DNA of 63,686 nucleotides, counting the filler, from Welwitschia mirabilis (Eukaryota), in the NCBI GenBank assembly GCA_051453625.1. It is 5 parts of one record of this genome, joined end to end, with 100 filler letters (N's around TTAATTAATTAA, not from the genome) between each part and the next. Parts side by side here need not be neighbours in the genome. Positions count along the whole stretch, not along the records: positions 50,891 to 61,956 come from JBOZIK010000001.1; 4 more parts are not named here. One strand, 5' to 3'. Shown piece by piece: positions 11,563 to 63,686 of the stretch (its first letter is position 1; each line of letters opens with the position of its first letter). Under the pieces are notes generated by a model. It was not told the DNA's origin, made no database searches, and was given only the letters and a program-made list of their open reading frames with translations. Both the position numbers and the translations under genes were made by a program.

Positions 11563-11970
11563 ATGCTGGGACATGGTAAACTTAGGTAAAAAGATAAAAT
11601 ATTAGATAGAGTAAATTCTAATCAAAGAAAACATCTAATAAGATTTAAATGACTATGAACTAAACCCAGGTATGCAACCACAAGTATGCAAAGCATTCTA
11701 AGAAATAAGTAATAATATTTTTTTACATTTATTATTTTAGAATCTAACTTTGTAAAGAAATTTTTTTAAAAAAAGGTTTAGAAGTAAATAGCATTATTAT
11801 AATGTCAAATTTTATGGAAAAATAGAAATAAGTATCTTTTCCTAATCCTCCTATAATGATAAGGATCTCTAATACACTCAATAATTCAAATGCTAATGTC
11901 ACTCTTAAAAAACTAATTACAAATAAAAAACATGAAATCTAAGATTCTTTAGACCTACCTCTTGATGATG
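11563..11970 (+). pseudogene. Element B gag, N-terminal part (cut by element C)
   Basis: Homologous to the gag start of C at 13654. Ends ..LDLPLDD at the TSD and continues at 21467. Confidence 0.7.
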
Positions 11971-13224
11971 TGTTGTAATGCCAATTTGTAGGAATTTGAT
12001 GGTATATTTTAAATGCTTTTGTAGAATAGTTACACAGGTTTTGATGTAATACTAATGACTATAGAGGTTTTACAAGATGATTAGTAAAACATATGATTCT
12101 TAGTGTTTTTGGCATTTTCTCAGGCTTATTCTGACACTGCATATTTGGAATAATACTTCATAATACAAAATCCTAATTTACCTTGATATTAAATAGAAGG
12201 AAGACTATCATCCCCTATGTCATCCACACGATATGCAGGATGATGATACTACTGATATGGATAAAAGCTGTAGGGCTAACAGTAGGGCATGAAGATATTT
12301 GGCATAGGGTGATATCCTCCATGTCATCTTAATGATAGTCAGGGTGATAGCTATTTTTGTATAATCAGAAAGAAATATCTTTGTAATGGGGTCAAGTAAC
12401 CCATGTAGGCTGTTAGGGTTTCTTCTCCAACTTCTAGGGTTTTGTCTTTAGAACCTAAATACAAAACTATAAATACCCTTCTCCTCCTTTATTTTTATTT
12501 TCATCTTTTGCACCTGATACACTTGTGATGGAAGATTGAAGGGAAAGAGGTTCATACAGATCTACAAAAAGGAGTTTCCTTGGTGTTAGGCTGAGTATCT
12601 TCCATTGAGGTGTTTTTATTTTATTTCTAAGTGAATGTAATTTCCTAAATACTCTTGTTAATCAATATAATTGTTATTTCATTTTCATTCTGTATGTTCC
12701 TTATGATTTACATTGATCATAGTTTATTGTGAAAACTCAGTGATTTATCTAGATTGTAAATGCAACCTTTATTAAAGTTAACCTTGTTTAGTATTAGATT
12801 TGCATTATTTTTTCATTCTATTTCATATTGCATTCATTCTTCTACTTGATAGATCTCATAGTTTATGTTGGTTAATAACTAGTTGAATGCTCTTCTTAAT
12901 TGATCTAAATTATAGACAATATAGTCCTTGTAATAGAAAGACTAAGATCTAAGTAGAATCCATTACATTTCATTTCCATTCACTTGCATTACCATTTTCA
13001 TTCACTTGCATTTTAGTTACTTGTTTATTTATTTCTAGTTTTTATAAGATAAAAGATCTAAAAATATATTAGAAATCAATTTTCTAACTCTAAGCGTAGT
13101 GTCTTTATTGGGATTACAACATTTGGGTGAACTCCAATCTATACTAGCATGTGTTTTTTGCAACTTTTTTGGTTTATAAATTTACTTAAAGGACTTCAGC
13201 ATTGCATAAATTCATACTACAACA
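11971..13224 (+). repeat. 5' LTR of element C
   Basis: TGTTGTAATG...CTACAACA, TATA box CTATAAATA at ~12467, homologous to 20181-21461. Confidence 0.9.
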
Positions 13225-13246
13225 TTTCGGTGCCATTGCCAGGAAA
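13225..13246 (+). promoter_or_regulatory. Primer-binding site of C (tRNA-Asp type, typical of Athila)
   Basis: TTTCGGTGCCATTGCCAGGAAA immediately after the LTR, close to the Athila consensus TTTGGCGCCGTTGCCGGGGA. Confidence 0.8.
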
Positions 13247-13653
13247 GGCCACAAGGAGCTAGGAGAATTATCATTAATCAAATAAGTACCTTGAATCTAT
13301 TATTTAGGATATTTATTTAAATTAATGCTATGTTTATAGTATAGTTTAAAGTAGATTTATTTTTGCATGATTTTATTTTTCATAATTTTTCTTAAGGATC
13401 CTATCATTTTCTCTATTGTTCCGACAACATAGGTCACAACAATTTAAAATTTTAAATTGTTTTTCTTTATAATAAACTATTGTTGTATCTATCATCACCA
13501 CAACAGTCTAGATGATAGTCTAATTTTCTTCTATTAGAATTTTTATAGTTTCATATTTTATTACTATGATCATCATTCTTCTTGTTATCACCATAACTAG
13601 ATGGATGATAGTCTGCTATTTTTCATTTCAGCTTTTTTGTTAGTTGATTAAGC

Positions 13654-16600
13654 ATGCAGGGATATGATGAATTCTAGTAAAAAGATAAAATATTAGAAAG
13701 AACAGAACCTGATTGAAGAAAACATCAGAGAAGGATTATTCAACTTCAAGCTAAATCTAGATACACAAACCCTAGGTATGTAAATTCCTAGAATTGAAGA
13801 AAAAGTCTTTCTACTTTTATTATTTTAGAATCAGATTTTCCAAAAGAAAATTGTAGTGTATAAGTGGATTGTATTATTTCTTCGAATATGTTGAAATCAT
13901 CATAAAAATAAAAGTAAGTTGCTTCATCTAATATTCTAATCATAATAGGAACTTCTTCCTCAAATGTAAACATTACTCTTAAGAATTTAGTTGTAAATGA
14001 AAAATGTAAAATTTAAATTCCTTTTGATTTACCTTTTGGAAACAATGTAGAATTAAAAAATTTAAGTGCTTATCCAAATTTTTTAGAGGAACTATAGGAA
14101 GATCCTTTTCAACATTTAGCTAACATTGAAAAACTTGTGATTGCCTCAGAAAATGGAAAGAAACATATTAGTGACCATACTTATATGATTATTTTTCCAG
14201 CCACACTTACAAGAAGAGCAAAAGTTTAACTTAAAACTATTTCACATAAAAGTCTTAAATCTTGGAGTCAGGTGCAAGAAGTATTTATTAAAAGATTTTT
14301 GAGTGAAAGTTTCATGAGGAAGAGAAGAAAATGATTAACTAACTTTCAATAACAAACTCATGAAGATTATGCAACAACTTATGAACATTTTATAATCGCT
14401 AGCCATTCCAACCCTAATGATGAATTTTGTAAAGAAGAGCTACTAGATCAGTTTTATAATGGATTGAATGCTTCAACAAAATAACTAATACATTTTCTTG
14501 TGGAGGAAACTTGCTGAATTTAGGAATGGAGGATGCATGGAATGTGCTAAAAAATTTGGTATAAATAAGTCAAACTTAGCCTAAACCCACTAAAGAAAAT
14601 CGTACTATAGAATAAATTCTAAAGGATTTAAAAGAAGTAAAACATAACAAAGAAGAAGAAGGGAAGGACTTAAACAACATAATGAAAGATTCTACTACTA
14701 CTTTGAAGAAGTATACACAAATGATAATTGATGCAAAGGTAGTAAAAAATGAAATTTTAACTTCAAATTGTGAAATTTATGAAGATGAATCTCATTTAAC
14801 AAAAGAATACCCTTTATTATCAACTTGTAAGGAAAGGATGTTTGAGGAATTTTGTGCCTTCAACCAAAAAACACCCAATTTCAAAAATCAACTACAATTT
14901 CAACAAATATTAGGAGGGTAATATCAATGAAAACCATTTGAAATTAGATTCAAGAATCCCAACTTTCAACCTAATTTTTAACAAAATTAGAATGATGCAC
15001 TTAGAGAATCCATAGAAGAGATGAGAAAAGTATAGGAGAAGACTAATAGCAATATTGAGAACCTAGTAAATGTGCTTCAATAAACAATGCTTACCAATAA
15101 AAGATTATAAGTGTCTCTTACATCTCAACCAATACCTAACTCAAATGAAGTTAGAAGAGATTTAAAAGTAGTAGCAAGAAATATAAAGGATACAAAACCT
15201 CCTACCCATGATGTTTTAACTTCTAGAGATAATGAAATAAATAAGGAAGATGATGTGGAAATTTTAGATTCATATAACCTTCCACTAACAAAGAAAAGAA
15301 ATCATTCACTCCTTAGCTTAATAGATTAAATACAAATCCTATATTTGATTAACATCTAAAAGCTTTGATGTAAGAAGTTAACATCAACCTACCCTTTTGA
15401 AACCTCTGAAAATCCTAAATATTCTAAGTTATAGAAAGATTTAGTAAGATTAAAGTAAAAACGTATCATGCCTACTAAAATATTTCTTGCCTAATCTCTT
15501 TATAACTTAGTTATGTAAAAATGCCCTAAATTCAAAGACCCTAGGGATGTAACTGTAAGTGTTACCTTAGAAGGAAATAAAAGAATTTAGAAATCTTTGA
15601 TTTACATAGGAGCAAGTGTAAAAATCATACCTCTCAACATATGTAAAAGACTTGGGTTAGAAAATAGAGTTGAACCTACATTGATCATCTTAGAATTAGC
15701 TAATACCTCAATCAAGAAACCATTAGGAATTACCAAAGACCTAGTTATCCAAATTGAGGAAGATTTTTATCCCATTAATGTCGTCATATTAAAGATACAA
15801 CATGATAGAGGATATCCACTACTCTTAGAAAGCCTTTTATGAAACTACCCATTGTATCATTGACATACAATCTGGGATGATAAGATACCATTTTGATAAC
15901 AAAAAAATTACTATTAGAGTTTTTAATACTATTGAGAAAGACACAAGAACTTGAGTTTAACTTTGAAGATGAATTAAAACCAACCTTGTTTTTATAACAT
16001 CAACCAATAGAAGAGAGATTAATCATTCTTCATAAACCAACTTTGTATGATAAGCCCACTAAAACCAACTGTTTGAAGTCAAAGAATGAAGAACACCTAG
16101 AATGGGAAGAAGCTCAACATCTTTACTCAATAGAAAAACCTTTTGAAGAGTGTTGTCCCATGTCTATTATCTTCACAACAGATGGGATGACAACCCAAAA
16201 TACCACTCATGAACTTAAGAAATTATCCCAAGTATTAAAATACATTTTTCTTTTCGAAAATCACATAAAACCTTTGATAATTAGTGACCTTCTTACTTCT
16301 TAATAAGAATCCAATTTGATCTCACTCTTAAATTGAAAGAAAAATGCCTTTGCTTAGACACATAAAGACTTAGATGCCATTCCTCTTTTCACAGTTTAAT
16401 ATGAAATCTACCTTGAAGATAATGCTAAACCTATTAGACAACCCTAAAGAAGATTAAATACAACCCTTAAATAAATCATTAACAATGAAGTCATTGAACT
16501 TATGGATGCTAGAATTATATATTCCATATCCGATAGTGAGTGGGTTAGTTCTTTAATAGTAGCTCTAAAGAAAGAGGGGAAATGAAGAATATGCATCAAT

Positions 16601-18533
16601 TTTAGAAACCTTATCAGGTTACTAAAATGATCATTGCTCTTTACCATTTATTGATTAAGTTCTTGATAGAATCCAAGTCATGGCTACTATTATTTTCTTG
16701 ATAGGTATAGTGAATATAATTAGATTTGTATAGCAAGTGAAGACCAAGTTAAAACCACTTTCATCTCTCTTTTTGAAACCTTTACTTTTAAATAAATGCC
16801 CTTTGGACTTTGCAATGCCCCTGAAACCTTTTAATGAGACATGTTGAGAATATTTTCTAATATGATAGAATACTCTATTAAAATTTTTATGGATGAATTC
16901 TCCATCTTTGGTGATTATTTTAAATAAACTATAGTGAGATTAGGAAAGTTCCTAGATTAATGTCTTAAGAGTGGTTTACATTTGAGTTGGAAAAAAAGCT
17001 TTTCCCTTGTCCAACATGGAATTGTTTTAGGTCATCACATTTCAAAAGAAGGAATTAGGATGGACCCCACAATAGTGGATATCATTGAAAACCTTAACCC
17101 TCCAAATAATGTCAAACAAGTTAGATCTTTCCTTGGACATGTTGGTTTCTATCAATGATTCATTCATGATTATGCTAAAACTTATAAAACTTTCCATTCC
17201 TTACTTGAAAAAGATGTTAAATTCAATTGGAATTATTCATGTCATTTGCATTTAAAACCCTCAAGGAAAACATCCCTTCTAAACCTATTATCATAGGTCT
17301 CGATTGGAATAAAAACTTTAAACTTATGTATGATGTAATTAATATTACTGTAGGAGGGGTTCTTAGTCAAAAATATGAAAATGGTTTCTAGGTTATATCT
17401 TATCTTAGTAAAACTTTATCAAGTACCTAATCCAACTATAGTACCACTGAGAGAGAAATGATTGCTATTATCTTTTGTTTAGATCATCTTCGACATTATC
17501 TTCTTAGTTTTTATATTAATGTGTATACAGATCATGCATCCATCTACTATCTTATGGCTAGAAAAGATTTGAGTGCTAACTTATTAGGTGGATCCTTCTA
17601 ATGGAAGAATTTAATCTTACCATCATTGATAAGGCTAGAAAACATAACAGTGCTGCTGATCATCTTTCTCAACTTTCTTACTTCCATGATGAAACTCCCA
17701 TTAATGAATTTTTTCCTGATGAGTAACTCTTTGCAATTAAATAATTATATGCTATCTTATCTTCTTACCCCACTCCTTGGTATGCTGACATCGTGAATTA
17801 CCTTGTGACTATGAAAACTCCTTAACATTGGAATCATAATCAATGCAAAAATTTTTTCTATAGGATCAATGACTATGAATGGAACAAACCCCATATTTAT
17901 AGATGTTGCAAATATTAAATTATGTGTAAATGTGTGCCTATATGGAAAACCTTATAAATCTTAACATTTTGCCATGGTAAGGCATGTGGAGGGTACTTTA
18001 GTGGCCAAAATACTATCATTAAAATTCTTCACTCTAGTTTTTATTGGCCTACTCTTTTCAGAGATTCATTTAACTTTTCTAGGAAGTGTGATGCATGTCA
18101 ACGCTATAGTAGCCTAAATCATTCTCATGATATGCTTCTCAAACCCATACTTGAATTTAAACCTTTTGATTATTAGGGAATTGACTTTGTAGGTCCAATT
18201 ACATCACCTTTTCATGAGAAAAATTATATCCTTGTAGTTGTGTATTATGTTACTAAGTGGGTTAAAGCTATTCTTACTACCAAAAATGATGCTTGAACTA
18301 TTTACCACTTTGTTCTAATTCATATTTTTTTAATGATTTGGTTTTTCACAAATTATCATTAGTGATCAAGGAACTTATTTCATTAATCACCTCTTTCGAA
18401 AACTTCTTTTATCCATTTATGTTAAACATAGAATTGCTTGTGCTTATCATCCTCAAACTAATGGTCAAGCTGAAAATGTAAATAAAGAAATTAAAAAAAT
18501 GCTTAAAAAATTAGTCTCTATCAATAAGAAAAC
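13654..18533 (+). pseudogene. Element C gag-pol (gag, aspartic protease, RT, RNase H, integrase), many stops and frameshifts
   Basis: gag EDPFQHL (~14100), protease LIYIGASV (~15600), RT MPFGLCNAP (~16800) and IFMDEF (~16885), RH VYTDHASI (~17525), IN WYADIVNYL, HHCC region and GIDFVGP (~18180). Domain order is gypsy-type. Confidence 0.9.
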
Positions 18534-18999
18534 NNNNNNNNNNNNNNNNNNNNNNNNNNNNNNNNNNNNNNNNNNNNNNNNNNNNNNNNNNNNNNNNNNN
18601 NNNNNNNNNNNNNNNNNNNNNNNNNNNNNNNNNCATAAAGTGGATATCATTAAAAACATTAATCCTTTAATTAATGTCAAATAAGTTAGATCTTTCCTTA
18701 AACATGTTGGTTTGTATCGACGATTCATTCATGATTATGCTAAAATTTATAAACCTCTCAACTTGTTACTTGAAAAATATGTTAAATTTTATTGGAATTA
18801 TTCATGCTAACTTGCATTTAAAACCCTTGAGAAAAACATTTCTTTTGAACCTATTATTATAGGTTCTAATTAGAGTAAATACTTTAAACTTATGTGTGAT
18901 AAAAGCAACATTGCTGTAGAAAGGGGTTCTTAGCCAAAAAATATGAAAATGATTTNNNNNNNNNNNNNNNNNNNNNNNNNNNNNNNNNNNNNNNNNNNN

Positions 19000-19011
19000 T
19001 TAATTAATTAA
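19000..19011. other. Artificial scaffold spacer TTAATTAATTAA inside N gaps (also at 36530, 50835, 62001)
   Basis: Identical 12-mer centred in 100-base gaps, giving stop codons in all six frames. Confidence 0.9.
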
Positions 19012-20167
19012 NNNNNNNNNNNNNNNNNNNNNNNNNNNNNNNNNNNNNNNNNNNNTATCCATTTTCATTTTTATTTTTCTTTAGTTATTTTATTGGATTT
19101 CCAAAGTCATTATTCATACTTTTACATCGTCATATTATGGAACTAATCATTTTCTAGTTCTTTTTATTTATCCATTTTTTTTAGAGGATTATTATTTTCT
19201 TTATGATAGGTTTCCATGATTTAATAAGTTTCAATTCTTCTTTTCCATTAGTTTAAACACATTTGAGAAGTCTGTGATCATTGTTTATTCTCATTTAGTA
19301 CATTTTATTGTACTATCACCTTTTCTGTTTCCACCATGAGGTTGATTTTTAGGCTATTTCTTTACTTTTTCCCTCTTTTTGATTTTCCTTTTATTTTTCT
19401 TTGTATTTGTAGATTTTTCTGATTTCATCTTCCTCTTCAAACAGCTAATTTGATGACTGTCATTCCACTTTTACCATTTCAATAATAGATGAGATGATAT
19501 TCCTCTTACATTCTTGGTGTAATCTAGGATGTCTTTCTTCTCTTGGGGGAGGGGGAGGGGAGAGGAGGGGAGGGGAGGGAAAGGGTAGAACACCTTTTTA
19601 GGCATTATTCTATACTTTTCAGTATAAATTTTTCAAATTATAAGCTTTTATGATCTAACTTTATGATAGGTTATTTGGATTAGTTTTTCATATTATTTGA
19701 ATAAATATATGGAAAATTCATGAACCTTATCTGTTAGGATCCAACAACACACTCACAAATTTTTTTCATAGCCATGTTTCAGATCATCTAAAACATGCTA
19801 TATCTACTCTTGTCCTTTGCATTTTTGATGATACTAGTGAATTGAAAGACATCATTCTTTGGAATATATCACTACTTAAGCCTATCACAATAGCCCATTA
19901 TCAATATTTCTATAATATACATACACAATTTCATTTCATGAGCCCTCAAAGTTACATTTGTATGATTTCTATATGTGTATATCATTTATTTAGTCTATAG
20001 TGACATGCTTAAGTAGGGGGATTAGGAAAGTTCTTTAACATTTTTATCAGTTATCCATTTACATGATTTAATGGAACTTAATTTACATCTTTTCAGCACT
20101 ATTTTATCTTAGTCAAATTAGCTTATAATCTAGTTGATTGCTTACTTTATTAGGGACTGATAAGGCT

Positions 20168-20180
20168 AAGTAGGGGGATA
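20168..20180 (+). promoter_or_regulatory. Polypurine tract of C
   Basis: AAGTAGGGGGATA abutting the TG of the 3' LTR. Confidence 0.8.
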
Positions 20181-21461
20181 TGTTACAATGCTAATTTGTA
20201 GAAATTTGATAGTGTATTTTGAGTGCTTTTGCAGAACATTTACACAGGTTTTAATGTAATACTAATGAATATGGATATCTGACAGGATGATCAGTAAAAC
20301 ATGTGATTCTTAGCATTTTTGGCAGTTTCTCAGGCTTATTCTAACACTATATATTTGGAAGAAGACTAAATAATACAAAAGACTAATTTACCTTAGAAAT
20401 TAGATATAAGGAAGACTATCATCCCCTATGTCATCCCCATGACATGCAGGATGATAAAACTATTAACATGGATAGAAGATGTAGAGCTAATAGCAGGGCA
20501 TGAGGATATTCGATATAGGGTGACATCCCCCATATCATTTCAATGATAGTTAAGATGACAGCTATTTTTATATAGCTGAGAAGAAATATCTTTATAATGG
20601 GATCAAGCGAAATATCTTTATAATGGGGTCTAGTGATCCATATGAGCTATTAGTATTTCTTTTCTAACTTTTAGGGTTTTGTTTCTAGAACCTCAATACA
20701 AAACTATAAATACCCTTCTCCTCTTTCATGTCTGTTTCCATCTTTTATACCTAATATAATTGTGATGGAAGATTAAAGGTCAAGAGATCCATCTAGATCT
20801 ACAGAAAGGAGTATCCTTGGTGTTAGGCTGAGTCTCTTTCATTGAGGTGATGTTATTCTATTTATAAGTGGATGTAATATTCCTGAATACTCTTTTTCAT
20901 TAATAAAATTATTACTTCATTTTTATTATGTATGTCCCTTTTGGTTTACATTGATTATTGCTGATTGTGAAAACTCTATGATTTATCTAGATCATAAGGA
21001 CAACCTTTATTAAGGCTGACCTTGTTTAGTATTAGATTTGTATTGTTTTTCCATTCCATTCATATTGCATTCATTCTTTTACTTAGTATATCTCATAGTT
21101 TATATTAATTAAGAACTAGTTGAATACTCTTCTTAATTGATCTAAATTATAGAGAAGATATTCCTTGTGATAGAAATACTAATATCTAAGTAGAATCCAT
21201 TGCATTTCATTTCCATTTACTTGCATCATCATTTTCATTCACTTGCATTTCATTTACTTGGTTATTTATTTCCATTTTTTATAAGATAAAAGATCTAAAA
21301 ATATATTGGAAACTGATTCTCTAACTCTAAACCTAATGCCTTCTTTGGGATTATGACATTTGGATGAACTCTCATCTATACTAGCGTGTGTTTTCTGCAA
21401 GTTATTTGATTTACAGATTTACTTAAAGAACTTCAAGATTGCATAAATTCACAGTGCAACA
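20181..21461 (+). repeat. 3' LTR of element C
   Basis: TGTTACAATG...GTGCAACA. Carries a 26-bp tandem duplication (~20583-20634) absent from the 5' LTR. Confidence 0.9.
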
Positions 21462-45419: not shown

Positions 45420-48400
45420 ATACTAGAACTTATCTCAACCAAGTTATTTGGTAAGGATATTAAGAGTTTACTCTATAGTCAAATAGTATACTAGTGTAAT
45501 GACTTTATTTTGTATAAGTTCCCTAATTTTGTGGATCTCACATAAAATTATTTTTTCCTATTATGATGCATTAGATATTTTGCTAGCAAATTGCTAATTG
45601 CTTGTTAATGAAGAGCTCTATTGTCTTAGTCTATTTTAATTATACTAGTTCTAAAGCATTCAAGTTCTTTACATGCCATAGAAGTAGTTGTATATTTTGG
45701 CCCAGTACAACATCAATCTATTGTTTTCTAATGCTTTGATTATCATGAAAAGGGTGATGTCCCTAAGAACATAACATACCCTGATGTTGATAGAGAGGTA
45801 TCACTTTCTCTAGCAACATATGAATCATATTATATATTTAAGATGAATTAAAAGTTTCTTTTATATGTTAGACCTAAATATTTGGTCTTCTTTAAGTATC
45901 TCAGCACTCTCTTTATAGAATTCAAATGAGTTACCTTGGGTGCATGGAAATATCTTAATAATACACCAATAACATATGATATATCTTGTATAATATTTAT
46001 TACATAAATTAAACTTGAGACCATTCTTCCATATTTAGTCTTACTTATAGGTTCTAAATCTTCATATACAGATATCTTGGAATTCATTTCTAAAGGAGTC
46101 ATATCATCCTTTGCATTTTATATCCCAGATTTATCAACTAGATCTATGATTTATTTCTTATAAGTTAAAAATATCCAATATTTTTTATGAATAATCTCTA
46201 CATCCAAGTAAAATCTTACTAATTTGAAATTACAAATTTTGAATGCTTTACTTAAAGCAATCTTTATTATTTTCACATCTTCTTCATTAGTTTTAGTTAT
46301 TAACATATCGTCTAGATATATTGATATATATGTGTATTTAATTCCATTAAATTTTATAAATAATGTGACATCCACACCTCAATAATCACATAATATAAAT
46401 CAAATAAAACTTAGATAATTTACAAGATTAGTATACCATGCTCTTAGTGCTTGTTTTAATTCATATAGTAAGTTGATCAATCTATAAACTTTTTGTTATT
46501 TGTTTTTAACTTTAAATCCTTATGGTGGCATCATGTCAATTTATTATATTAAATATTCATGTATAAAGGTAGTCTTTATATCTAATAGATAAATCTTTCA
46601 TCCTCTTTGTGTAGCCAAAGTAATCACTATTTTAATGGTAGCCCATTTTGCAGTCAACACAAAGATCTTATTATAATCAAATTCTTTCTTCTAAGGTAGG
46701 AAAATAACAACAAGCTAAGATTTATGTCACTTAAGAGCATTTTAACTATTATATTTCTTGTATAAAATCTATTTTTAAGGTAACTCTATGCATATTAACT
46801 AAAGATCTACCAACTCTAAGGTATCATTTCCAAGAAGACTATCATATTCTTCTTGTGTAGAGTTTTTCTAGTTATTATGTTGAATATAATTCTTACATGA
46901 GTTTAGTTTATCATAAAATATTACATGCAAATTATCATTATCATTATCATGAGATTTATGTAAGCCTTGTTTGATTTGAGTTTTACTCTTCTCATCATTG
47001 CAAATATCTTGAAGTATAAACTATAGTTAAGTACTTTAACATCATCTCTAGGTAGTATCAATTTTTTTTTTTTTTTTGAAGAATCCATTAAATTTCTACT
47101 AAAACCATAATCAAGTGTGTTGAAAGCACTAGAGGTTATAAAGTAAATGTACCACTAGTAGAAATTAAAGCATCATTGATGATCACATATTACCCCTCTA
47201 TCATAAGACATTAAACATCAATATGGTCACTAGGTTTTAGAAAGGATAACACTTTGAGAGATAATCATTATTTAATGCTTCTAAAAAGATGACATTACAA
47301 GAAAACAATGATCTTCTGATGCTCTAGAAGATATACTTAATAATCCTTCTAGTTAGCTAGATATTTCATATTTCATAAAGATGTTGATGCAAGCTTGTGC
47401 TCCAATCTTTTCATGATGTTTACATAAAATATGGATGTAGCACATATAACAAAAAGCATGGAAATGATTTAACTTCATCTTATATCCATACCACATTTTA
47501 GCTAGAAATACTCCTTTTTTAGTATATCAACTAATGTGGTTATTAAGATACATAGCTGTTTCATTACGTTATTCCAATGATAGGTCTTACAACCATGGAA
47601 ATATGTCATGGAACAAACCATATCCATGATAGTATAATTTACTCACTCAACATTTCCATTTTATTGAGATGTCTCAAGGAAGGTTTTTAAATGTTGAATT
47701 TATTTAGAAGAAAGAAAGTTCTTAAACTTAGTAGATGAGTACTTACCATTAATATTTGAGTAAAAATTTTTAATCCAACATTTAGCTTGTTTTCCACTTT
47801 AGTTTTAAACTTTTTGAAAATTTTCAAAGTATGAGATTTGGATTTAATAAAATATAGCCAAGTCATTCAAGAATAGTTATCAATAAAAAAGATAAAATAA
47901 TATAATATATGAAGGGTAGAAACTAGCATAGGTTCATATAGATACTGTGAATAAGTGAAAGCTTTCAATCAACACATCACTTATTTAATGAAAATTATTA
48001 TCTAGTTTATTTATCCATAATACATGCTTCACAATGAGGAAAATCCCATGGAATGAATGAAAGAAGCCAGTGGCCATGTCATGTATCATAATTATTATGC
48101 AAGAAGTAATATGTTATAATCAATCATGCCATAATAGCAAGTTAGAGATCTCATCTTGGAAAATAGCATAAGAAATTTCTCACATTCTGATATAACCATG
48201 AATATGAATAAGATTTCCATTCATGTAGCCTTTCATGATCAGTTATTGATTACTATTATAAATATCCATTGAGTACTTCATCATATAAATTGAGTGATCT
48301 TCTCACACTAGAGTAAAAATCAATAGAAGATGCAACCTAAAAGAAGAAATGTATAGAATATAAGAAATAATATGTGAAGAGAGCAATGTTAAGTCAAGGG

Positions 48401-53800: not shown

Positions 53801-55283
53801 TGAAATCTTTAATCATATTAGTTGAATCACTTTTCTCTTCTTCCTTATCATGTTTTACCTCCTTTAAATAATTTATGATTTATCCTATAGTTTTATTTTC
53901 CTTAGAAATGGGTTTTAGCTAGGTTTGACTTATTTTTACTAGATTTTCCAATAAATTCCATGAATCATCTAAAGTTAAGTTCATTAAGTTGCCATCATAA
54001 AAAAAGTCTACAAGTTGTCTATTTTGATTAGTCAATAGACTATAGAAATAATTTATTAATTCTTCTTTACAAAATTCATCAACAAAATTGGAATGGATAG
54101 CTATGATAGAATGATCATAAGTAATGACATAATCCTTTGGAGGTTATTGTTAGAAGTTGGTAACTTACTTCCTTATTTTTTTCATGGTACCTTCATCCAA
54201 AAATCATTTAATAAAAAGTTCTTGCACTTTAACTCCATAATTTAAAACACTTTTATGGAATGATTTTAAGCCAAAGTTTTGCTTTTCCTCTAAGTTTGAT
54301 AAAAAATACAACCATATAAGTATGATCACTAATACATTTCTTCCCATTATTTAAGGTAAGTAAAGTTATTTAATGTTGGCTAGATGTTTAAAAGGGTCCT
54401 CTTTAGGTTTCCTTAAAAATGTTGGATATCTGTTTAAGTTTCTTAATTCTACATTATCACTAGAAGATAAATCAAAAAGAATTTAGATTCCATATTATCT
54501 TTTAGAAATTAAATCTCTAAGCATAGCATTTCCATTTGAAGTTAAATTTGCTATCATGATTGGTATACTAGATGAAGCAAATTTTTTTTTATTTTTGTAA
54601 TGATTTTAACATAAATGAAAAATAAATTATATGAATTTTGTTTTAAAAAATTTGACTCTGAAATAATAAAAGGAGAAAAATATTCTTCTTTAGTTCTTGA
54701 AATTTGCTCACTTGGGTGTGTGTACCTAGATTTTATTTGAAGTTAAATAACCCTTTCTGATATTTTTCTCAATTAACTTCCACTTTCTCTAAAATTTTGT
54801 CTTTCTACTAGAAATCACCATGTTCCTACATACTTCAAATAGAAAATAAAAATTAAAATATAAAAAAACTAACATTCATCTACCTAGTTATGGAGACAAA
54901 AAAAGGAACAATGATTAGAAAAATAGAGGATTACTAAAAATAGAGAAAATTATTGAAATTAGAAAATAAGGCCATCGTCCATCTTTTTATGGGGATGATA
55001 GTAAGGATGACAACACATTATTCTGTTATTAAGGAAAAAATGTAGGAAGAAAATAAATTAAAAAAAACTATGACTCTCATTCTTAGTATCGTGTGGATGA
55101 CTAAGGGAATGATAATACTAATTAAAGCTATGAAAAAGAAAAATTACCAAAATAAACCTACCAAACTAGAATAAAAATATAGCACTATTTTAGATAAATA
55201 ACCTAAACCAAAATCTAAAGTACTTATCTAGATAATGATAATCATCCAACTTCTTATGACCTTTCCTGAAAATAGTGCAAAAA
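50891..55283 (-). pseudogene. Element G: Athila-type internal region (leader, gag, protease, RT, RNase H start)
   Basis: Protease LVDIGTSVNIMPL (~52840-52800), RT IYIDDF (~51535-51515), RH LMCDVK (~51090), decayed PBS at 55262-55283. Collinear with C. Confidence 0.88.
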
Positions 55284-55854
55284 TGTTATAGTGTGAATTT
55301 GTATAATATTTAAGTCCCTAGGTAAAAATTGTAAAATAGAATACTTCCAAAAAAACACATATTAATATAAATAAGAATAAATCTAAATGTCATAATCCAT
55401 TAAAGGCTAAAGTTAGAGGATTGATTTTACAAAGTATTTTTGATATTTTTACTTTAGTAAATAAAAATAAAAAACAATGTAAATGTTATGCAAGATGAAT
55501 GATGATGAAATGGAATCAATAAAATGCAAGTGTGATAATTATATTTAAATTCCAAACCTTTTTTGTAACAAGAATTAGCCCTTATAAATTAGATCAATTA
55601 GAAAGTGTTATCACTTGTCCCTAATTAACATATCCTATAAGATGTATCAAACAAAATGTGGATAAATGCATATATGAAAATGAAATGAAATGAAATGAAA
55701 TGCAATATCTAAACTAATAATACTAACCTTAATAAAGGTTTCCCTTATGATCTAAATAAACTATAAAATTATCATTCAATCATAATCAACTTAAACCATA
55801 AGGGAGGTTCACATAATAAAAGTAATAATAGTTCTTGTATTAATCATCAATTAA
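55284..55854 (-). repeat. 5' LTR of G (partial, interrupted at 55855)
   Basis: TGTTATAGTGTGAATTT start. Homology to the C-family LTR stops at ~55845. Confidence 0.8.
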
Positions 55855-56090
55855 CATTAGTATCAGAAATATGGGCTTTTAAGGCATTTCTTCAAAAAAT
55901 GCCTTTAAAACAATTTCCTTAAAATCCCACATGCTTTTAAGGAATTTTTGAGGCATTTTAATAAAAATGCCTTAAAAGGCCTTGTAAGGCATTTTTTCAA
56001 GAAACACCTTAAATCATTTTATGGCATTTTAGCAAATAAATACCTTACAAGAATTTTAAAGATTTTTAGAAATAAATGCCTTAAAATGTA
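55855..56090. mobile_element. CACTA/EnSpm-like terminus with subterminal repeats
   Basis: CATTAGTATCAGAAAT (decayed CACTAGT..) followed by about 10 copies of TTTAAGGCATTT / AAATGCCTTAAA in alternating orientation. The other end is not found in the window. Confidence 0.7.
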
Positions 56091-56853
56091 CAACTTAGAT
56101 TTTAAAAAATACCACATAGAACTAAAAGAAAATTTACCACACAAAATGCATTTGAATGGGCATGATTAAAATGAGTCTGTTGAAATATTTTCTATTAATA
56201 ACATTCTCAATATCATGAAATATTTAAAAAATAATATATTTTAATTTTCACATACTCTAAAAATTCCATTTTCAAACCTACTTAACAAAGTTAGAAGTGA
56301 AAATTCAAACATGGTTAATCTCAAAAATTTTAGTGTACAGCCCATCTACATTTCTATTCCTAGTTTTTTATTAAAAAATATTATTTTCACTATTATATTT
56401 TAATGAAAATAAATAAACCATTGCTTAAGAGCAAGGGTATTAAGTAAGGTATTACATGCTTAAATAGTCTTAATTTAAAGAAGCCAAATGCCTAATTTTT
56501 TTGGTTTCAAAGTATTTACTCTAAATGATCAATGTGTGTACTATGTACTATGTAAAGTCTCAATGTTAACTCCTAAATTTCGTTGTTAGGCTCTTCATCT
56601 TTAAATTACTTTTATTTCATATCACATCTAGAAGATTTATTCAGATTTTCATCTCCATTTTTTCTTAACCTTGGGCTACTAAGAGCAGTAGTAAAAGTGT
56701 GATAAAAGAAGGCATCAAAAAAGTTTACTTTTGAATTATCTATCTAAAAAAAGAAACTTCTTATTCAAATCAAATAAGACAAAAAAGTTTCAAATTAAAA
56801 GGAACTAATTGTAAGCATTGATAAATTAATAATACCTTCATATTTCTAGATCA

Positions 56854-57197
56854 TTATGGAGAAGACTGCTTACTAATAATAAAGGCTTGTAGAAAAATTT
56901 GAGCAGCTTTTGTTTGTTCTAGTGTTCTAGAGATTAGAACCATAGCTTTGAACATCCTAGGTATAGGATCATGCACAATAACCTTTGCACCAGAAATCTG
57001 AAATTATATAAAATTAGTCATATAGCATTAAACAAATCTCTGAATATTTAAAAATAAAAATTGATTAGTACTTTATTTAGCTAAACCTATCTAATTTGAT
57101 TCAAATTGCTATTATTCTTGCAATAAAGGAATCTATTATATGCTTAGGAATATGTACTTCAATAGTAGTATTGGTAATAGCTACTGATTTACTTGCA
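56854..57197 (-). pseudogene. Two-exon fragment encoding the last KH domain of a HEN4-like (hnRNP K/PCBP-type) plant RNA-binding protein
   Basis: Exon 57197-57087: SKSVAITNTTIEVHIPKHIIDS-(frameshift)-KNNSNLNQIR* (CAG>TAG). GT-AG intron 57086-56998. Exon 56997-56854: ISGAKVIVHDPIPRMFKAMVLISRTLEQTKAAQIFLQAFIISKQSSP*. Possible 3' UTR intron at 56835-56744. Confidence 0.85.
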
Positions 57198-58702
57198 TTA
57201 TACAACATTAAATTTTCAATGTATCCCTTTCAAAATAATAATACATGGCAATATAACGACTACATAACATAACCACTGAATGAAATAACAGTTAGATGCA
57301 TAACAATTAGATGAAAAAAGGTTATAAATCCACCTCTTCAAACTAATACTCAAATCAAAGGAGATAGCAAAATTGGGTTATGTATACTTAGATGAAAAAA
57401 GGTTATAAATCCTAGTTTCTTCCATGGTTTTAACAACATGTTCCTCTTTAGATTTTATTCCTCAAGGTATCTACATTATCGATCGGGAATAAGAAGGCTC
57501 GATATTCTCTCTTAAGAAGAATGAAATAATAGTTTCTATAAGGATAGGCATTGGCGAAGTTAATTCTAAAGTTCAAGAGAAAGTTCCAAAATTAAAAGAT
57601 GATATTGAAACTAAGGGAAGGAACTTAGAATATTTAGGGCCTATATCCTTAAATAGTAAAGAAGACCAAAAAGGTTAAAGGACCTGCTAGAATACTAGAT
57701 TATATCAGTTAGATAGTAGAAAGAACTCAAAGTTCTTGAAATAAAATAGAAATTCCAATGAAAAAAAGTGGAAGCATTTCAATCCCCTTAAAATGAACAT
57801 TGTAGCTAAATAGAAGAAATTCAGTAACTACCAAAAGAAAAAAAAAGAAAAAGAAAAAGAAAAAGAAATAGGGCAACCTCACTTGATGTCAATATCATTA
57901 CATTCTAGAAATGAAGCAATTAGTGTTATCCACTTACAAGTGTTTGATTCCATATAGAACCTTTGATATTGATCACTTGATATCATAGAATTTGAGTATT
58001 TAAGATTTTCCTAAGAAGAGAAGTGGTGGTTATTGCTCAATTTTATTTTTACCTATGTTCTTGATTACGATACTCTTTATCTTCTTCATTCATAAAGGTC
58101 ATTAGCACATTAACTTACTCTTGTATAAGCATGTTGATAAATCACTACATATTTATTATTCATTTATCCATCATCTCTCTATAACAATAGCACCATCTTA
58201 AAAAAGAAAAAAAACCATATTCATCTCTTAAATCACTGCATAATAGGATATCCCTAAAAAGGAATAATATCATTAGCTTTATTAAATATATCTTAAGGTT
58301 ACTTGTGATCTTCCACATCATGTATTCCATCACTTTATGAGCTCTATGATTTTGTGTATTGTTTTTGCACATTTTCATTCTTGTGAAATGCATTATTTAT
58401 GTATTTTAATATCTTTTCCATTTTAATATTCAACCCCTATGTTATTCTATTCATAATAAGTTTACCTAAAATGGATTCATTTTTCTTAAAAGAATAAGAA
58501 AACAAACAAGAAATTAATTATATTATTGCTTAAAGAGTTGTAGATGGAGTTATAAGGCCACTGAGAAGGATGTTAACGTAATAAAACCCTCACTTAGATT
58601 TTACTTTAACATCCAATCATGAGTTTGTAGTCTTCTTGGATATCTAAATTGTTGATTAAGAAGAACAAAGCTTGATATTATCTCTTAAGATGGATGAACT
58701 AC

Positions 58703-60161
58703 TATTGCGGTGTGAATTTATGTAATCTTGAAGTCCTTTAGGTAAACCTGCAAATTATATAACTTGCAGAAAAACACATGCTAGTATAGTCAGGAGTTCA
58801 CCCAAATGTCGTAATCCCAACAAAGGCACTAGGCTCAGAGTTAGAGAATTGATTTTCAAAGGTAGTTTTTGGTATTTTATTTTTTACTTAACTGAAAGTA
58901 AATAGTAAAATGAATGCAATGCAAGATGGATGAATATGAAATGCAAGTGAATGGAAATGGAAATGAATGAATTCACATGGTTCTTAATCTTTCTGTTACA
59001 AGAACTAGCTTCTAGGCTTTTTGTCATAAAGACTATTCTTTCTATAATTCATATCAATCAAGAAGAGTATCTACTAATTTTTAATCAACATAAACTATGA
59101 GATCTACCAAGAAAAATATGCAGTATGCAATATAAAATGGAAATGCAATGCAATCCTACTACTAACCAAGATCAACCTTAACAAAGTTTGCCCTCATGAT
59201 ATAAATAAATCCAAGATTATCACTAACTATGATCAACTTAAACCATAAGAGACATTCACATAATTGAAGTGAAAAGAGTAATTGTATTGATTCAAAATAA
59301 TTTTACATCTACTTACATCAGAATAATAGCACCTTAATATAAGAGACATAGCCTAACACCAAGGAAACCCCTTTCTATAGCTACTGGATAGACCTCCTAC
59401 CTTCAAGATTCTATTACAAGCATATCAAGTATAAAAGATGATTTGAAATTAAAGGAGGAAAGGGTATTTATAGTTTTACAAAGAACCATAACCTTAGACA
59501 TTAATTAAGGGAATCTTAGCCACCCACATGGCCTATTTGGCACTTTTTATAATGAAATTTACTACCACAGTGTAAAAATAGTTGTCCTATTTGTTGTCCA
59601 ATCGATAGAGGGGACAACACTACCTTAACAGCTTGGGTTATGTGCCTGTGCTTCCATGGGTTACCCGGGCATGTTACTGATGCTATCGTCCTATTGGTCA
59701 TCAACACGATAGAGGGGATGATGCCTTGGATTATGTGCCCATGTGCTACTATTAATCTCGTGGGTTGTACTCACATCCGTTGTCTTGCCTGTCGTCCAAA
59801 CGACATAGGGAACGATGCACTATTACCATGTATTGCTGTCCAAGTGTTGCTCATGTGCTATTCCTGTGTAGCTACCATAATGAACTATCGTCCCGACTGT
59901 CGTGAGGACAACAGTGGGGATGACACTTTTCCCAATCTCCTCAAGTAGTGTACATTGGTATTCCTTTTCCTTAGTCCTTCTTCAATATGCTGAGTATTAG
60001 AATATGTCTAAAAGTTTGTCCAATTATGCCAAGAATTACATGTTTTTATGATCATCATATCGTATCTTCATAATTAGCAGAATTGCATTAAAACCTATAT
60101 AAATGTCCTACAAAAATACTTCAAATACACCATCAAATTCCTATAAATTGGCATCACAACA
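58703..60161 (-). repeat. 3' LTR of Athila-type element H (longer, CpG-richer subfamily), with PPT at 60162-60175
   Basis: TATTGCGGTGTGAATTT...GGCATCACAACA, followed by a reverse-complement PPT and the same 3' region as 27440-27516. Confidence 0.88.
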
Positions 60162-60531
60162 TAGCCTTCTATTTAGCCTTGTCAGTCGCTGACAAAGTAG
60201 GAAATCAATTAGATTGCGAGCCAATTTGACTAAGATAATCATCAATTAAAAAAATGGAATTTGAGTTATATTTATAATGCAGAAATAGATGACAAAAAGC
60301 CATTAATACAATTACTACTGTAGTTGTAAGCAACCTACTTAAACTCATCACAATAGTCCAAATAAATATCATACACATAACAAGTTAGAGTGATAGTTTC
60401 AAAAAATGATAATTTGTAGACATAATGCTGANNNNNNNNNNNNNNNNNNNNNNNNNNNNNNNNNNNNNNNNNNNNNNNNNNNNNNNNNNNNNNNNNNNNN
60501 NNNNNNNNNNNNNNNNNNNNNNNNNNNNNNN

Positions 60532-60859
60532 TTTTACATTCAAGCTTCCATCACAAGAATATCAAGTAAAAAAGATGGTTTGAAAGTAAAGGAGGAAAGG
60601 GTATTTATAGTTTTACAATGAACCATAATCCTAGATATTTGTTAAGAAAACCCTAGCCACTCACATTCCCATTTGACACTTTTTATAATGAAATTTACTA
60701 CCATGGTGTAAAAAGAGTTGTCGTCCTATCTGTCATCCACATGACAGAGGGGACAACGCCACCTTAATGCCTTAAGTTATGTGCCATGATCTCCTTTGAG
60801 TTGCCTGCACATGTTATTAATGTTGTTGTCCTATCAGTCGTCCACACGATAGAGGAGAC
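60532..60859 (-). repeat. Second H-subfamily LTR fragment (possibly the 5' LTR of H), cut by a family A insertion
   Basis: Collinear with ~59395-59720. Confidence 0.75.
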
Positions 60860-61955
60860 TATTGCGATGTATATTTATGCAATGTTTTATGTTTCAATTT
60901 TAATCCTATTAATTATAAATAAGATGTAAAATACAACATGCTAGTATAGACGGAGTGATCTGAATGTCGTAATTCCATCGAAGGCCAATGGTGTGGACAA
61001 TAAAGAGTTTATTTCCAAAAATAAATATGTAACTTTATTCAACTAAAATAAATTATAGTGCATGAAAATAAAAGATGCTGATGAAAACTAATCTAAGANN
61101 NNNNNNNNNNNNNNNNNNNNNNNNNNNNNNNNNNNNNNNNNNNNNNNNNNNNNNNNNNNNNNNNNNNNNNNNNNNNNNNNNNNNNNNNNNNNNNNNNNNN
61201 NNNNNNNNNNNNNNNNNNNNNNNNNNNNNNNNNNNNNNNNNNNNNNNNNNNNNNNNNNNNNNNNNNNNNNNNNNNNNNNNNNNNNNNNNNNNNNNNNNNN
61301 NNNNNNNNNNNNNNNNNNNNNNNNNNNNNNNNNNNNNNNNNNNNNNNNNNNNNNNNNNNNNNNNNNNNNNNNNNNNNNNNNNNNNNNNGGTATATAAAGA
61401 ATTCATTTTCAAAAAGAAATGTATAACTCTATTCTACTGAAATAAATTGTAATGCATGAAAATTGAAATAACAATGCAAAACTACCCTATAAAAAGAAAC
61501 AACAATGCACCTGATCTAATTAAGCTCAATCTTAATGAAGGTTACCCTTATAATCTATATAATTAAAGAAACTTATAATGAATCTATAACAACATAAACT
61601 ATAAGGGATAAGTTCCTGCAATTATTGATAAAAAAGAATAATTCATATTAAAATAGAAAAGGCATCTGTATCACAAAGTAGTCATTCCTCAAAGGATGAT
61701 ACGCCGTCCAACACCAAGGTAACATCTCTCTGGATTACAAGATGGTTCTCCGATCCTAAGATCTCTTGCATGAGAATGTCAGGTACTGTCGAAGATGATC
61801 AGGAATTAGGGGGGAAACCTTTATTTATAAACAAAAAGGAAAAGTAAACTGATAGAAAGGTAAAGTAGAAACTCTTGCTAACATGCAAAGGAAAGTCACA
61901 AATAATAGGCAACAATTTGGGAATACATTCTATAAAAGAAATAGGGAATAATGTC
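60860..61955 (-). repeat. Family A LTR (partial, gapped)
   Basis: Reverse complement of 18-1113, e.g. 61700-61785 versus 585-670. Confidence 0.8.
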
Positions 61956-62056
61956 ANNNNNNNNNNNNNNNNNNNNNNNNNNNNNNNNNNNNNNNNNNNN
62001 TTAATTAATTAANNNNNNNNNNNNNNNNNNNNNNNNNNNNNNNNNNNNNNNNNNNN

Positions 62057-63420
62057 AATTAAATAATTTTATACTATCTCATCTTCTTATCCCCTCCTTA
62101 TGCTGATATCATGAATTACCTTATGACTATGAAAACTCCTTAGCATTGGAACCATAATGAATGCAAAACTTTTCTCCATAGGATCAGTGACTATGAATGG
62201 AATAGACCTCATCTTTATAAACATTACAAAGATCAAATTATGTGTTAATGTGAACCTAATGGAAAACATTAAAAATCTTAAAACTTTTTCATGGTGGAGT
62301 TTGTGGAGGATACTTTAGTTGCCAAAAGATCATAATGAAAATTCTTCACTCTAGTTTTTATTGGCCTACTCTTTTCAAAGATTCATTTGACTTTTCTTAG
62401 AAGTGTGATGCTTATCAATGCTATGGTAGCCTAACTGATTCTCATGATATGTCATTCAAACTCATACTTGAATATGAACCTTTTTATTTTTGGGAAATCA
62501 TCTTTGTAGGCCTAATTATACCACCTTCCAATGAGAAAAATTATATCCTAGTAGCTATGGATTATGTTACTAAGTGGATTGAAGTTGTTTCTACCACCAA
62601 TACTAATGCCTGAACCATTTACAACTTTGTTTAAACTCATATTTTATAATGATTTGGATTTCTATGAATTATCATTAGTGATCAAGAAACTCTTTCATTA
62701 ATCACCTCTTTTGAAAATGTTTTTTAACCATTGGTATTGAACATAACATTTCTTATGCCTATCATCCTCAAACCAATGGTCAAGCTAAAAATGCAAATAG
62801 AGAAATCAAGAAAATGCTTTAAAAATGGTCTCTATTAATAAGAAAACTTGGTATTCTAAACTTAATGATGTTATTTGGGCTTACCATACTACTTCTCATA
62901 ACTCTCTAGGTTTCTCATCCTATAAAATTGTGTTTGGAAAAGTGTGTATGTTACCAGTTAATGTTTGCTATAATTCTTATTGGTTTACCTATCAACTGAA
63001 TCTTATTAACTTGAATGAAAACCTTAAAATTCATTTAGCCCAACATGACCATTTACATGAAAAATGTACTCATGCCTTACATCATCAACTCATTCATAAA
63101 ACTCAAACCAAGTTATAACATGATAAAAAAATTATTCATAAATAGTTTAAAGCTAGTCAACTTGTCTTGTTGTATAACACTCAAGTACACCTTTTATACA
63201 ACAGTTAACTTCTACATGATTAGGTTCTTATCATATCAAAAAAGTACACTCAAATGGCTTAGTTGAAATCTTCGATTTAAATCCTAGAGAAATCCAAAAG
63301 ATTAATGAATAGAGGTTAAAAATTTATGAGTCATCTCCTAATAAAATCTTAAACATGATAGAAGCACATGTTTTGGAACCCCCTCTTCATAAGAAGAAAC
63401 TTTCTTTTGCCATTATCTAA
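62057..63420 (+). pseudogene. Athila-type integrase remnant (another C-family copy), followed by its 3' non-coding region to the window end
   Basis: YADIMNYL, FYWPTLFKD, YILVAMDYVTKWIEVV, AYHPQTNGQAK, and ORF 62825-63118 (WYSKLNDVIWAYHT). Collinear with 17740-18530. Confidence 0.9.
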
Positions 63421-63686
63421 ATTCTTTCCTAACTCTTTCCTTTGGTAAACATCATGTTCTTACTTGAATATCTTTAACTTGACATATGTACTTACTTATA
63501 AAGTTTCCATGATGAGTAATATTTTACTTGGGTATTTTCAATGATAAAATTAGCTTCATCAAATTTTCAAATATTTGTATGTCTATGAACTTCATTCAGA
63601 AGGAAGATGCCTTGGTTATTTTATTCTCTTTTAATGATGTGAGTAAATTAGTTGTTTATGCAAGATCCTACTTTATTACTCATCTC

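Follow-up and report, generated by a model that had tools for sequence, protein, structure and literature searches.

The capture of gene fragments by plant DNA transposons, and the spread of these fragments, are already well documented. Passages in four papers (PMC2613891, PMC8978399, PMC6379663, PMC8903248) describe closely spaced direct and inverted subterminal repeats that are able to form stem-loops as a hallmark of CACTA elements, and they place gene fragments directly inside such subterminal regions. Here we describe the 3′ end of a HEN4-like gene, with its introns, beside a short array of repeats in a stretch of Welwitschia mirabilis DNA (GenBank assembly GCA_051453625.1) of 63,686 nucleotides (nt), the whole of which is referred to as the window. 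The gene fragment runs from within one intron through the last two coding exons and their stop codon to the end of the 3′ untranslated region (UTR), which is complete and has an intron of its own. We favour, with moderate confidence, the explanation that an expressed HEN4-like gene with five KH domains (5×KH) had its 3′ end copied at the DNA level, and that the copy, carried by a CACTA-type element, is now a dead transduplicate. On this explanation the locus is one more, decayed example of a known process; our literature search found no paper linking HEN4 to transposon capture.

The HEN4-like gene fragment and its expressed paralogue

The origin of the fragment was established by protein homology. 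A 49-amino-acid piece of the downstream pseudo-exon (exon B) matched 40 proteins at E≤1e-3 (best 4.6e-9) when searched with HMMER against 1.84 billion representatives, and all 40 matches fall at or near the protein C-terminus. Seventeen of these proteins are long homologues (355-700 amino acids), four to five KH_1 stretches were present in 8/8 of the long homologues scanned, and the source databases name the relatives HEN4, HEN4-like, RCF3-like or At4g18375. Even short homologues limited to the C-terminal end match KH_1 in full (profile positions 1-65 of 66), with the equivalent of exon B covering positions ~27-65. When the 17 long homologues were compared with the window by tblastn, every one of them matched 57000-56857; to this piece the search added 57205-57128 and, in a second frame, 57134-57090, for a best summed E of 7e-17. 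Judging by these comparisons, the coding part of a HEN4-like gene that the locus contains is limited to the last KH_1 domain with its native C-terminal tail and stop. Neither pseudo-exon taken singly gave a Pfam KH match, both being short or decayed. A word-indexed protein search with exon B returned no match in the 'longer' or 'near' lengths, and a sequence search of the PDB returned 0 matches.

The pseudo-exon pair lies on the minus strand at 57226-56854 and is interrupted by an 89-nt GT-AG intron. Pseudo-exon A (~57226-57087) reads ..SVAITNTTIEVHIPKHIIDS up to a 1-nt frameshift near 57127/57128, then continues as LYCKNNSNLNQIR and ends in TAG; its last codons are AGA TAG, directly followed by GT, and its acceptor would be the dinucleotide at 57228-57227. 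The coding intron (57086-56998) runs from GT to AG and is supported by both sequence and RNA reads. Pseudo-exon B (56997-56836) is coding to 56857 (ISGAKVIVHDP..LQAFIISKQSSP), after which come the TAA stop at 56856-56854 and 18 nt of 3′ UTR. A 3′ UTR intron of 157 nt follows at 56835-56679, again with GT..AG ends and again supported by sequence and RNA joints, and the last 3′ UTR exon occupies 56140..56678, where RNA coverage from a paralogue begins at ~56138-56156. All of these features are on the minus strand. Read from stop to stop, the minus-strand open reading frame (ORF) at 57229..57101 gives ..SVAITNTTIEVHIPKHIIDSFIARIIAI before its stop, and that at 57003..56854 gives FQISGAKVIVHDP..AAQIFLQAFIISKQSSP before its stop (in full, FQISGAKVIVHDPIPRMFKAMVLISRTLEQTKAAQIFLQAFIISKQSSP).

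This model was confirmed by RNA. Two DNA contig sets (X1 and X5, with two organism labels) and two RNA-seq runs (X13 and X16, selected by species label) were aligned to 55200-59200 at 80% likeness. Within the gene-fragment region, RNA coverage is confined to 56138-57209 in both runs, with a depth of 6-69 per strand class over the last 3′ UTR exon. At the variant sites listed, the letter in the RNA differs from that of the window in all reads save 1-2 at a few sites; at position 56327, for instance, the non-window letter is present in 28/28 and 25/25 reads. The transcripts therefore come from a paralogue, and transcription of the window copy itself was not detectable in X13 or X16. Reads that end at 57000 and continue into exon A sequence number 77 in X13 and 115 in X16, and the 30-nt consensus of their continuation equals window 57090-57119 with five differences. 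On the minus strand the spliced RNA reads GAG AAT GGC AGC AAT TTG AAT CAA ATC AGA CAG, followed across the junction by ATT TCT GG. It translates as ENGSNLNQIRQ joined to ISG, keeping the G-x-x-G loop where the window has CKNN. All 6 of the 6 differences in this 33-nt splice stretch set A or T in the window against G or C in the RNA. In the 3′ UTR, joints 56673->56838 and 56679->56838, both seen in both runs, bracket the GT (56835-34) and the AG (56680-79) of the intron to within a few bases. Since the paralogue RNA splices at the 57000 junction, it confirms the exon model together with two of the lesions described below, CAG>TAG and the decay of the GxxG loop. There is thus a paralogue that is expressed and reads intact, and its RNA confirms the pseudo-exon model base by base.

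Three lesions separate the window copy from a working gene end. The first is the frameshift near 57127/57128 in pseudo-exon A, across which the tblastn pieces fall in two frames. The second is TAG at 57089-57087, where the expressed paralogue has CAG. The third is decay of the GxxG loop, YGENGSNL having become YCKNNSNL. The KH fragment has neither the intact loop nor the open frame of a KH_1 protein. It makes no protein.

These results bear on several claims of a first-pass annotation that had been made from the sequence alone. The proposed origin in the C-terminal KH domain of a HEN4-like gene is upheld by HMMER, by KH_1 scans of the homologues and by tblastn. The two minus-strand exons with their 89-nt GT-AG intron agree with both the sequence and the splicing of paralogue RNA, and the 3′ UTR intron, then called only probable, has GT..AG ends and RNA joints in both runs. 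The tblastn frames and the RNA comparison uphold inactivation through the frameshift, CAG>TAG and decay of the GxxG loop, and the intact parent that had been expected was found, through RNA reads, as an expressed intact-reading paralogue. The annotation had also regarded the fragment as the only clearly host-derived piece in the window. This fits with a Pfam scan of 122 stop-to-stop ORFs of at least 55 amino acids, in which the 9 ORFs with matches all carry retroelement domains (RVT_1, RVT_2, RT_RNaseH, Integrase_H2C2 and SH3_retrovirus); ORFs of at least this length within 55845-58710 gave no Pfam match.

A separate observation concerns the protein matches themselves. Those shorter than 200 amino acids make up 23/40 (P0003, P0009, P0014, P0018, P0029 and others), and many are the last exon or the last two exons alone, after junk translation. 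Plant assemblies therefore often carry isolated HEN4-like 3′ ends annotated as genes, and public protein sets include many short 'proteins' that consist of the last exon only.

Boundaries, copy number and decay of the fragment

Several to a few tens of copies of the fragment are present in the genome. Whereas the locus's own contigs have a depth of ~7.7-7.9 in X1 and ~4.5-5.2 in X5, summed depth over 56138-57343 reaches 58-155 (X1) and 74-163 (X5), or ~6-25 times that of the own contigs, although summed contig depth is not copy number, as the tool itself warns. Individual sites are covered by 10 to 19 distinct contigs (19 at position 56747, 10 at 57180, for instance). Among paralogous contig pieces, the longest (56518-57039, 56655-57221 and 56781-57325) are 81-83% alike and span both introns.

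Both introns of the fragment are retained, and a processed retrocopy is therefore ruled out; the earlier proposal of a DNA-level copy of the 3′ end, with no retrocopy involved, stands. An origin through RNA of any kind, by retrocopying or by transduction in a long terminal repeat (LTR) retrotransposon, has in its favour that RNA-level similarity starts near the transcript 3′ end at ~56138. We nevertheless consider it exceedingly improbable, because the introns keep their GT..AG ends exactly where the paralogue RNA splices, there is no poly(A) tract next to 56138, and both flanking LTR elements face away from the fragment, which lies outside them.

On its upstream side the multi-copy similarity ends within an intron. 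The upstream-intron piece (57227..57343, minus strand) has no RNA. DNA depth drops from 104/93 over 57210-57343 to 16.5/4.7 over 57344-57477, and the longest paralogous piece stops at 57325. Similarity to other genomic copies thus ends ~100 nt upstream of the first pseudo-exon, by ~57325-57343. Beyond it, 57344..58710 is low-copy DNA with no coding signal, reaching up to the LTR end of the element to the right. Depth over 57344-58683 is 3-51, from paralogous contigs of ~83-85% identity, with no RNA, and 57344-58710 gave no Pfam match and no KH similarity.

The point at which similarity stops, within the upstream intron and with another 1.4 kb of unique DNA following it, argues against a broken copy of the whole gene. 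Such a remnant, with upstream exons separated or destroyed by LTR-retrotransposon insertions, was considered because the start of the right-hand retroelement is 1.5 kb upstream of exon A, and because the window stops at 63686 and has 3,632 bases masked by N runs. However, tblastn with the 17 long homologues found no other KH exon anywhere in the window, including 57230-63686 (next-best match E=0.69), so that the last KH domain stands alone in place of the four to five of a complete gene. The copies lose similarity at ~57325-57343, within the intron, though unique DNA reaches 58710, and the fragment is multi-copy. We therefore regard this alternative as very improbable. Upstream KH exons continuing in line with the fragment, which the first-pass annotation had named as the sign of a disrupted full-gene duplicate, are absent from the window.

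A perfect 25-nt direct repeat (57307-57331 and 57388-57412, plus strand) brackets 56 nt at the multi-copy edge. It may be a repair or template-switch scar. It would suit an ectopic duplication independent of any transposon, either double-strand-break repair filler or a small segmental duplication, lying beside an unrelated high-copy array. We think this possible but rather unlikely, since ~6-25 times the own-contig depth at like divergence (81-83%) would be hard to reach without a mobile carrier. Within the bracketed 56 nt, 57347-57374 is 75% like 56762-56789 of the 3′ UTR intron. A 64-nt direct repeat of 77% identity occurs at 57468-57531 and 58641-58704, spaced 1,173 nt, its second copy abutting the right-hand LTR. 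A microsatellite, (AAAAGA)n of 6.3 units, lies at 57833-57868.

The state of the reading frame was compared among the copies. An extra T after 57127, which restores the frame as ..DSIYCKNNSNL.., is present in 3 contigs of X1 (15.6 of 47.6 depth) and in 5 contigs of X5 (24.9 of 53.3). This is a minority of the depth, and most of what remains therefore probably has the frameshift of the window too. A frameshift common to several copies suggests, in turn, that the fragment spread after it was broken, which would also speak against a duplication without a carrier. The RNA reads provide a point on the other side: the extra T was seen in 0/15 and 0/20 of them among the rows listed, though the aligner may have placed the gap elsewhere.

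The window copy and its DNA relatives have also decayed in a particular direction. Over the whole aligned stretch, transitions that set A or T in the window against G or C in the RNA number 114 in X13 and 102 in X16, and the reverse 47 and 35. Set against the other DNA copies, the window shows no such bias (255 versus 299 in X1). From the A/T excess against RNA and the balance against DNA, it follows that the decay, in the window copy as in its DNA relatives, was by C>T/G>A changes. Decay of this type is expected of methylated, silent DNA.

The 12-mer array and its proposed carrier

An array of 12-mers at 55873..56086 carries AAATGCCTTAAA in both orientations, in about five 36-nt hairpin units of the subterminal-repeat type. 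Allowing at most 2 mismatches, AAATGCCTTAAA has 40 matches in the window where 23.4 would be expected, and 11 of the 40 (6 plus, 5 minus) fall within the 208 base pairs (bp) of 55878-56085. Depth over the array is ~10,000 against ~7.8 for the own contigs, a ~1,000-fold excess that marks a high-copy family. Joints of 34-108 nt that start at 55873-55877, of the 'goes back' and 'skips' types, are numerous over the array; this is the expected pattern where unit number varies among many array copies. We regard it as probably the subterminal-type hairpin array of a high-copy terminal-inverted-repeat (TIR) transposon, most likely CACTA (En/Spm). It has the dense direct and inverted short repeats of a CACTA subterminal region, and the DNA inside it is of host-gene origin with no transposase, as in Pack-CACTA elements.

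The fragment begins ~55 bp past the last array unit, and the distance from array to fragment ranges over 55-280 bp. A joint 55972->56138, ending at the base where RNA similarity starts, occurs in one contig per DNA run at a single-copy depth of 8.5-8.8, a hint that array and fragment are adjacent at a second locus. Based on these observations, we infer that array and fragment belong to one element and that this element would be of CACTA type.

Several points weigh against this inference. The stretch proposed as the terminus (55855..55872, plus strand, CATTAGTATCAGAAATATGG) has uncertain status. It is the sole candidate end in the window and starts CATTA, a 4/5 match to CACTA that is not distinguishable from chance at a single locus, and looser end patterns are about as frequent as chance predicts. 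For the 21-nt end, the window has no second match on either strand and no inverted partner, and the 15-mer at up to 3 mismatches has 11 matches where 9.9 are expected. High-copy alignments start at 55873-55877 rather than at 55855. The best-supported loose ends are at 55910 and 56013, and none falls 'before' 55855 among the best-supported rows. On the shorter side of the 55972->56138 joint there are only 27 letters. There is no second 12-mer cluster in the window at up to 2 mismatches, and none of the 122 ORFs scanned with Pfam contains a DNA-transposase domain, CACTA included. The array and the fragment differ ~100-fold in depth, with a further difference between the fragment and 57344-58710, so that array, fragment and right-hand DNA need not form one unit. 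Lastly, a truncated LTR stops right at the 55855 boundary, which could therefore be a deletion breakpoint.

The unequal depths, a left boundary that may be a deletion in the LTR, and the unproven link between array and fragment would all suit the carrier-free duplication discussed above, although the start of the fragment within ~55 bp of the last array unit speaks against it. A second alternative is a different mobile carrier, such as a Helitron, MULE, hAT or PIF element, with the array as the end of that element or a neighbouring insertion. The terminal five bases are not CACTA, the putative TAA flank is the usual duplication of PIF/Harbinger elements, and Pack-type elements are reported in all plant TIR superfamilies, both according to a passage of PMC8903248. 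We consider this alternative unlikely, because 55845-58710 contains no long TIR, and because a GC-rich hairpin with the CTRR motif of Helitron type was not found on either strand of 55800-58760 (perfect stems of at least 6 only), where the sole hairpin was that of the array itself. Moreover, parts of PMC2613891 and PMC8978399 describe dense direct-and-inverted short subterminal repeats as most typical of CACTA.

Two proposals of the first-pass annotation are thus only partly sustained. It had seen a decayed CACTA terminus with 12-bp repeats. The repeats stand, with 11 clustered matches and hairpins, and the terminus is doubtful, its CATTA start being at chance level. It had also proposed a candidate Pack-CACTA capture, of which the host cargo without transposase and the subterminal array hold, while a CACTA carrier is plausible and unproven.

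On the preferred explanation of a CACTA-borne transduplicate, we infer the following order of events. A non-autonomous element would have taken up the HEN4-like 3′ fragment, whose reading frame was then lost. The element would next have spread to roughly ten or more copies, all of which would have decayed by C>T/G>A changes, and LTR retrotransposons would later have inserted around the window copy. It is also conceivable, though highly doubtful, that the 10-20 decayed copies are a transposon-borne family of HEN4-like 3′ ends with the full parent 3′ UTR that acts on the parent in trans through putative 24-nt or 21-nt small RNAs, or that serves as a silencing shield ('camouflage'). If so, the target would be a single expressed parent gene that is itself an RNA-processing factor.

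A metagenome scan for the hairpin unit gave 6 loci with one isolated hairpin each, all unrelated, and no plant or transposon literature with the array's 12-14-mers was found among the matches listed. A primer-binding site for tRNA-Met was considered for TAGTATCAGAAA after the LTR and dropped, as there were 21 matches against 29.5 expected; the reading also fails on the LTR, which faces the wrong way by the orientation of its family. Neither the left LTR nor the internal region of its family showed significant continuation into 55855-55900 (z -1.3 to 2.4). Between 8266-8323 and 55838-55900 there is a likeness of ~70%. Its exact core, the 12 nt CAATTAACATTA, extends across the proposed terminus, and the local score is 63, where simple shuffles give 35.9+-4.2. 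The segment 8266-8323 has no 12-mer array, and 7000-9322 has no in-window repeats; we therefore treat the likeness as probable chance. A real likeness would speak against placing a transposon end at 55855.

Flanking retroelements and comparison with known systems

The window is AT-rich (G+C 17-33% in 2-kb steps), contains 22 N runs, and consists of old nested repeats of 65-86% mutual likeness by self-BLAST. The same comparison shows in-window repeat similarity ending at 55841-55854 and resuming at 58705-58711, while 55855-58704 has no other copy in the window. To the left lies a truncated LTR (55292..55854, minus strand) of a gypsy-type element, E1, with its first ~900 nt missing (self-BLAST, alignment A1). 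E1 shows just the last ~555 nt of its 5′ LTR, and other copies run on past the point where it stops. To the right, at 58711..60161 on the minus strand, is the complete 3′ LTR of a second gypsy-type element, E2 (self-BLAST), which had earlier been called element H. The internal 3′ end of E2 is 60162-60431, of which 60225-60431 aligns upstream of the 3′ LTR of a reference element (z=10.6). This reference is a fairly complete gypsy-type element at 11970-21459 on the plus strand, with LTRs of ~1.25 kb that are 82-86% alike. It carries RT/RNaseH/integrase, with RNaseH and integrase remnants at 17221-18173 on the plus strand, and it is from this plus-strand member that the minus orientation of E1 and E2 follows.

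The gene fragment is thus between two retroelements that face away from it and inside neither, and E2 inserted into the low-copy DNA next to the fragment. The E1 LTR may have been cut by a TIR element inserting at 55854/55855, or by a deletion; within the window, its missing part does not reappear to the right. The 13-mer AATCATCAATTAA has exact matches only at 55842-55854, where it abuts the left boundary of the unique segment, and at 60237-60249, in the internal region of E2 and 76-88 nt from its LTR. The pair was considered as a long target duplication or a deletion junction, and no such model fitted; counting all 13-mers near the junction, about one match of this kind is expected by our estimate, and it may be chance. 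Over 58684-59200 the flanking LTR family reaches a summed contig depth of 37,000-168,000 and an RNA depth of 1-8 per strand class (X13), and the family is therefore very abundant and weakly transcribed. Copia-type remnants (RVT_2, SH3_retrovirus) at 45851-47526 on the minus strand are the sole non-gypsy protein signal of the window.

The locus is of interest for two further reasons. The depth without the frame-restoring base suggests, without proving, the spread of an already dead fragment, and a moderately repeated piece of an RNA-processing gene could confuse gene annotation.

Compared with the plant 5×KH proteins (HEN4, HEN4-like, RCF3-like, At4g18375), the fragment has the same last KH_1 domain, the same tail (..LQAFI(L/I)S.QSSP, then the stop) and the same stop position. 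It also shares the intron directly before ISGAK, and exon B is 48-66% identical. In contrast to these proteins, the window copy holds only ~90 of ~650-700 residues, is frameshifted, contains an in-frame TAG, has lost the GxxG loop and has no RNA of its own in X13 or X16. Pack-MULE and Helitron captures show the same DNA-level uptake of exons with introns, followed by amplification and decay; unlike them, this locus has neither long TIRs nor a Helitron-type 3′ hairpin with CTRR. Pack-CACTA elements, such as Arabidopsis Pack-CACTA1, those of the soybean Tgm-Express1 type and Chenopodium Jozin with its AP2 or neprosin fragments, provide the other comparison. Here the differences are that the window locus has a single end whose first five bases are CATTA, with no partner TIR in the window, and that its array is ~100 times more abundant than the fragment. 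Nevertheless, the locus shares with the Pack-CACTA type an intron-bearing host fragment, the absence of a nearby transposase, a moderate copy number, and the position of the fragment a few hundred bp inside an array of hairpin-capable direct and inverted subterminal repeats.

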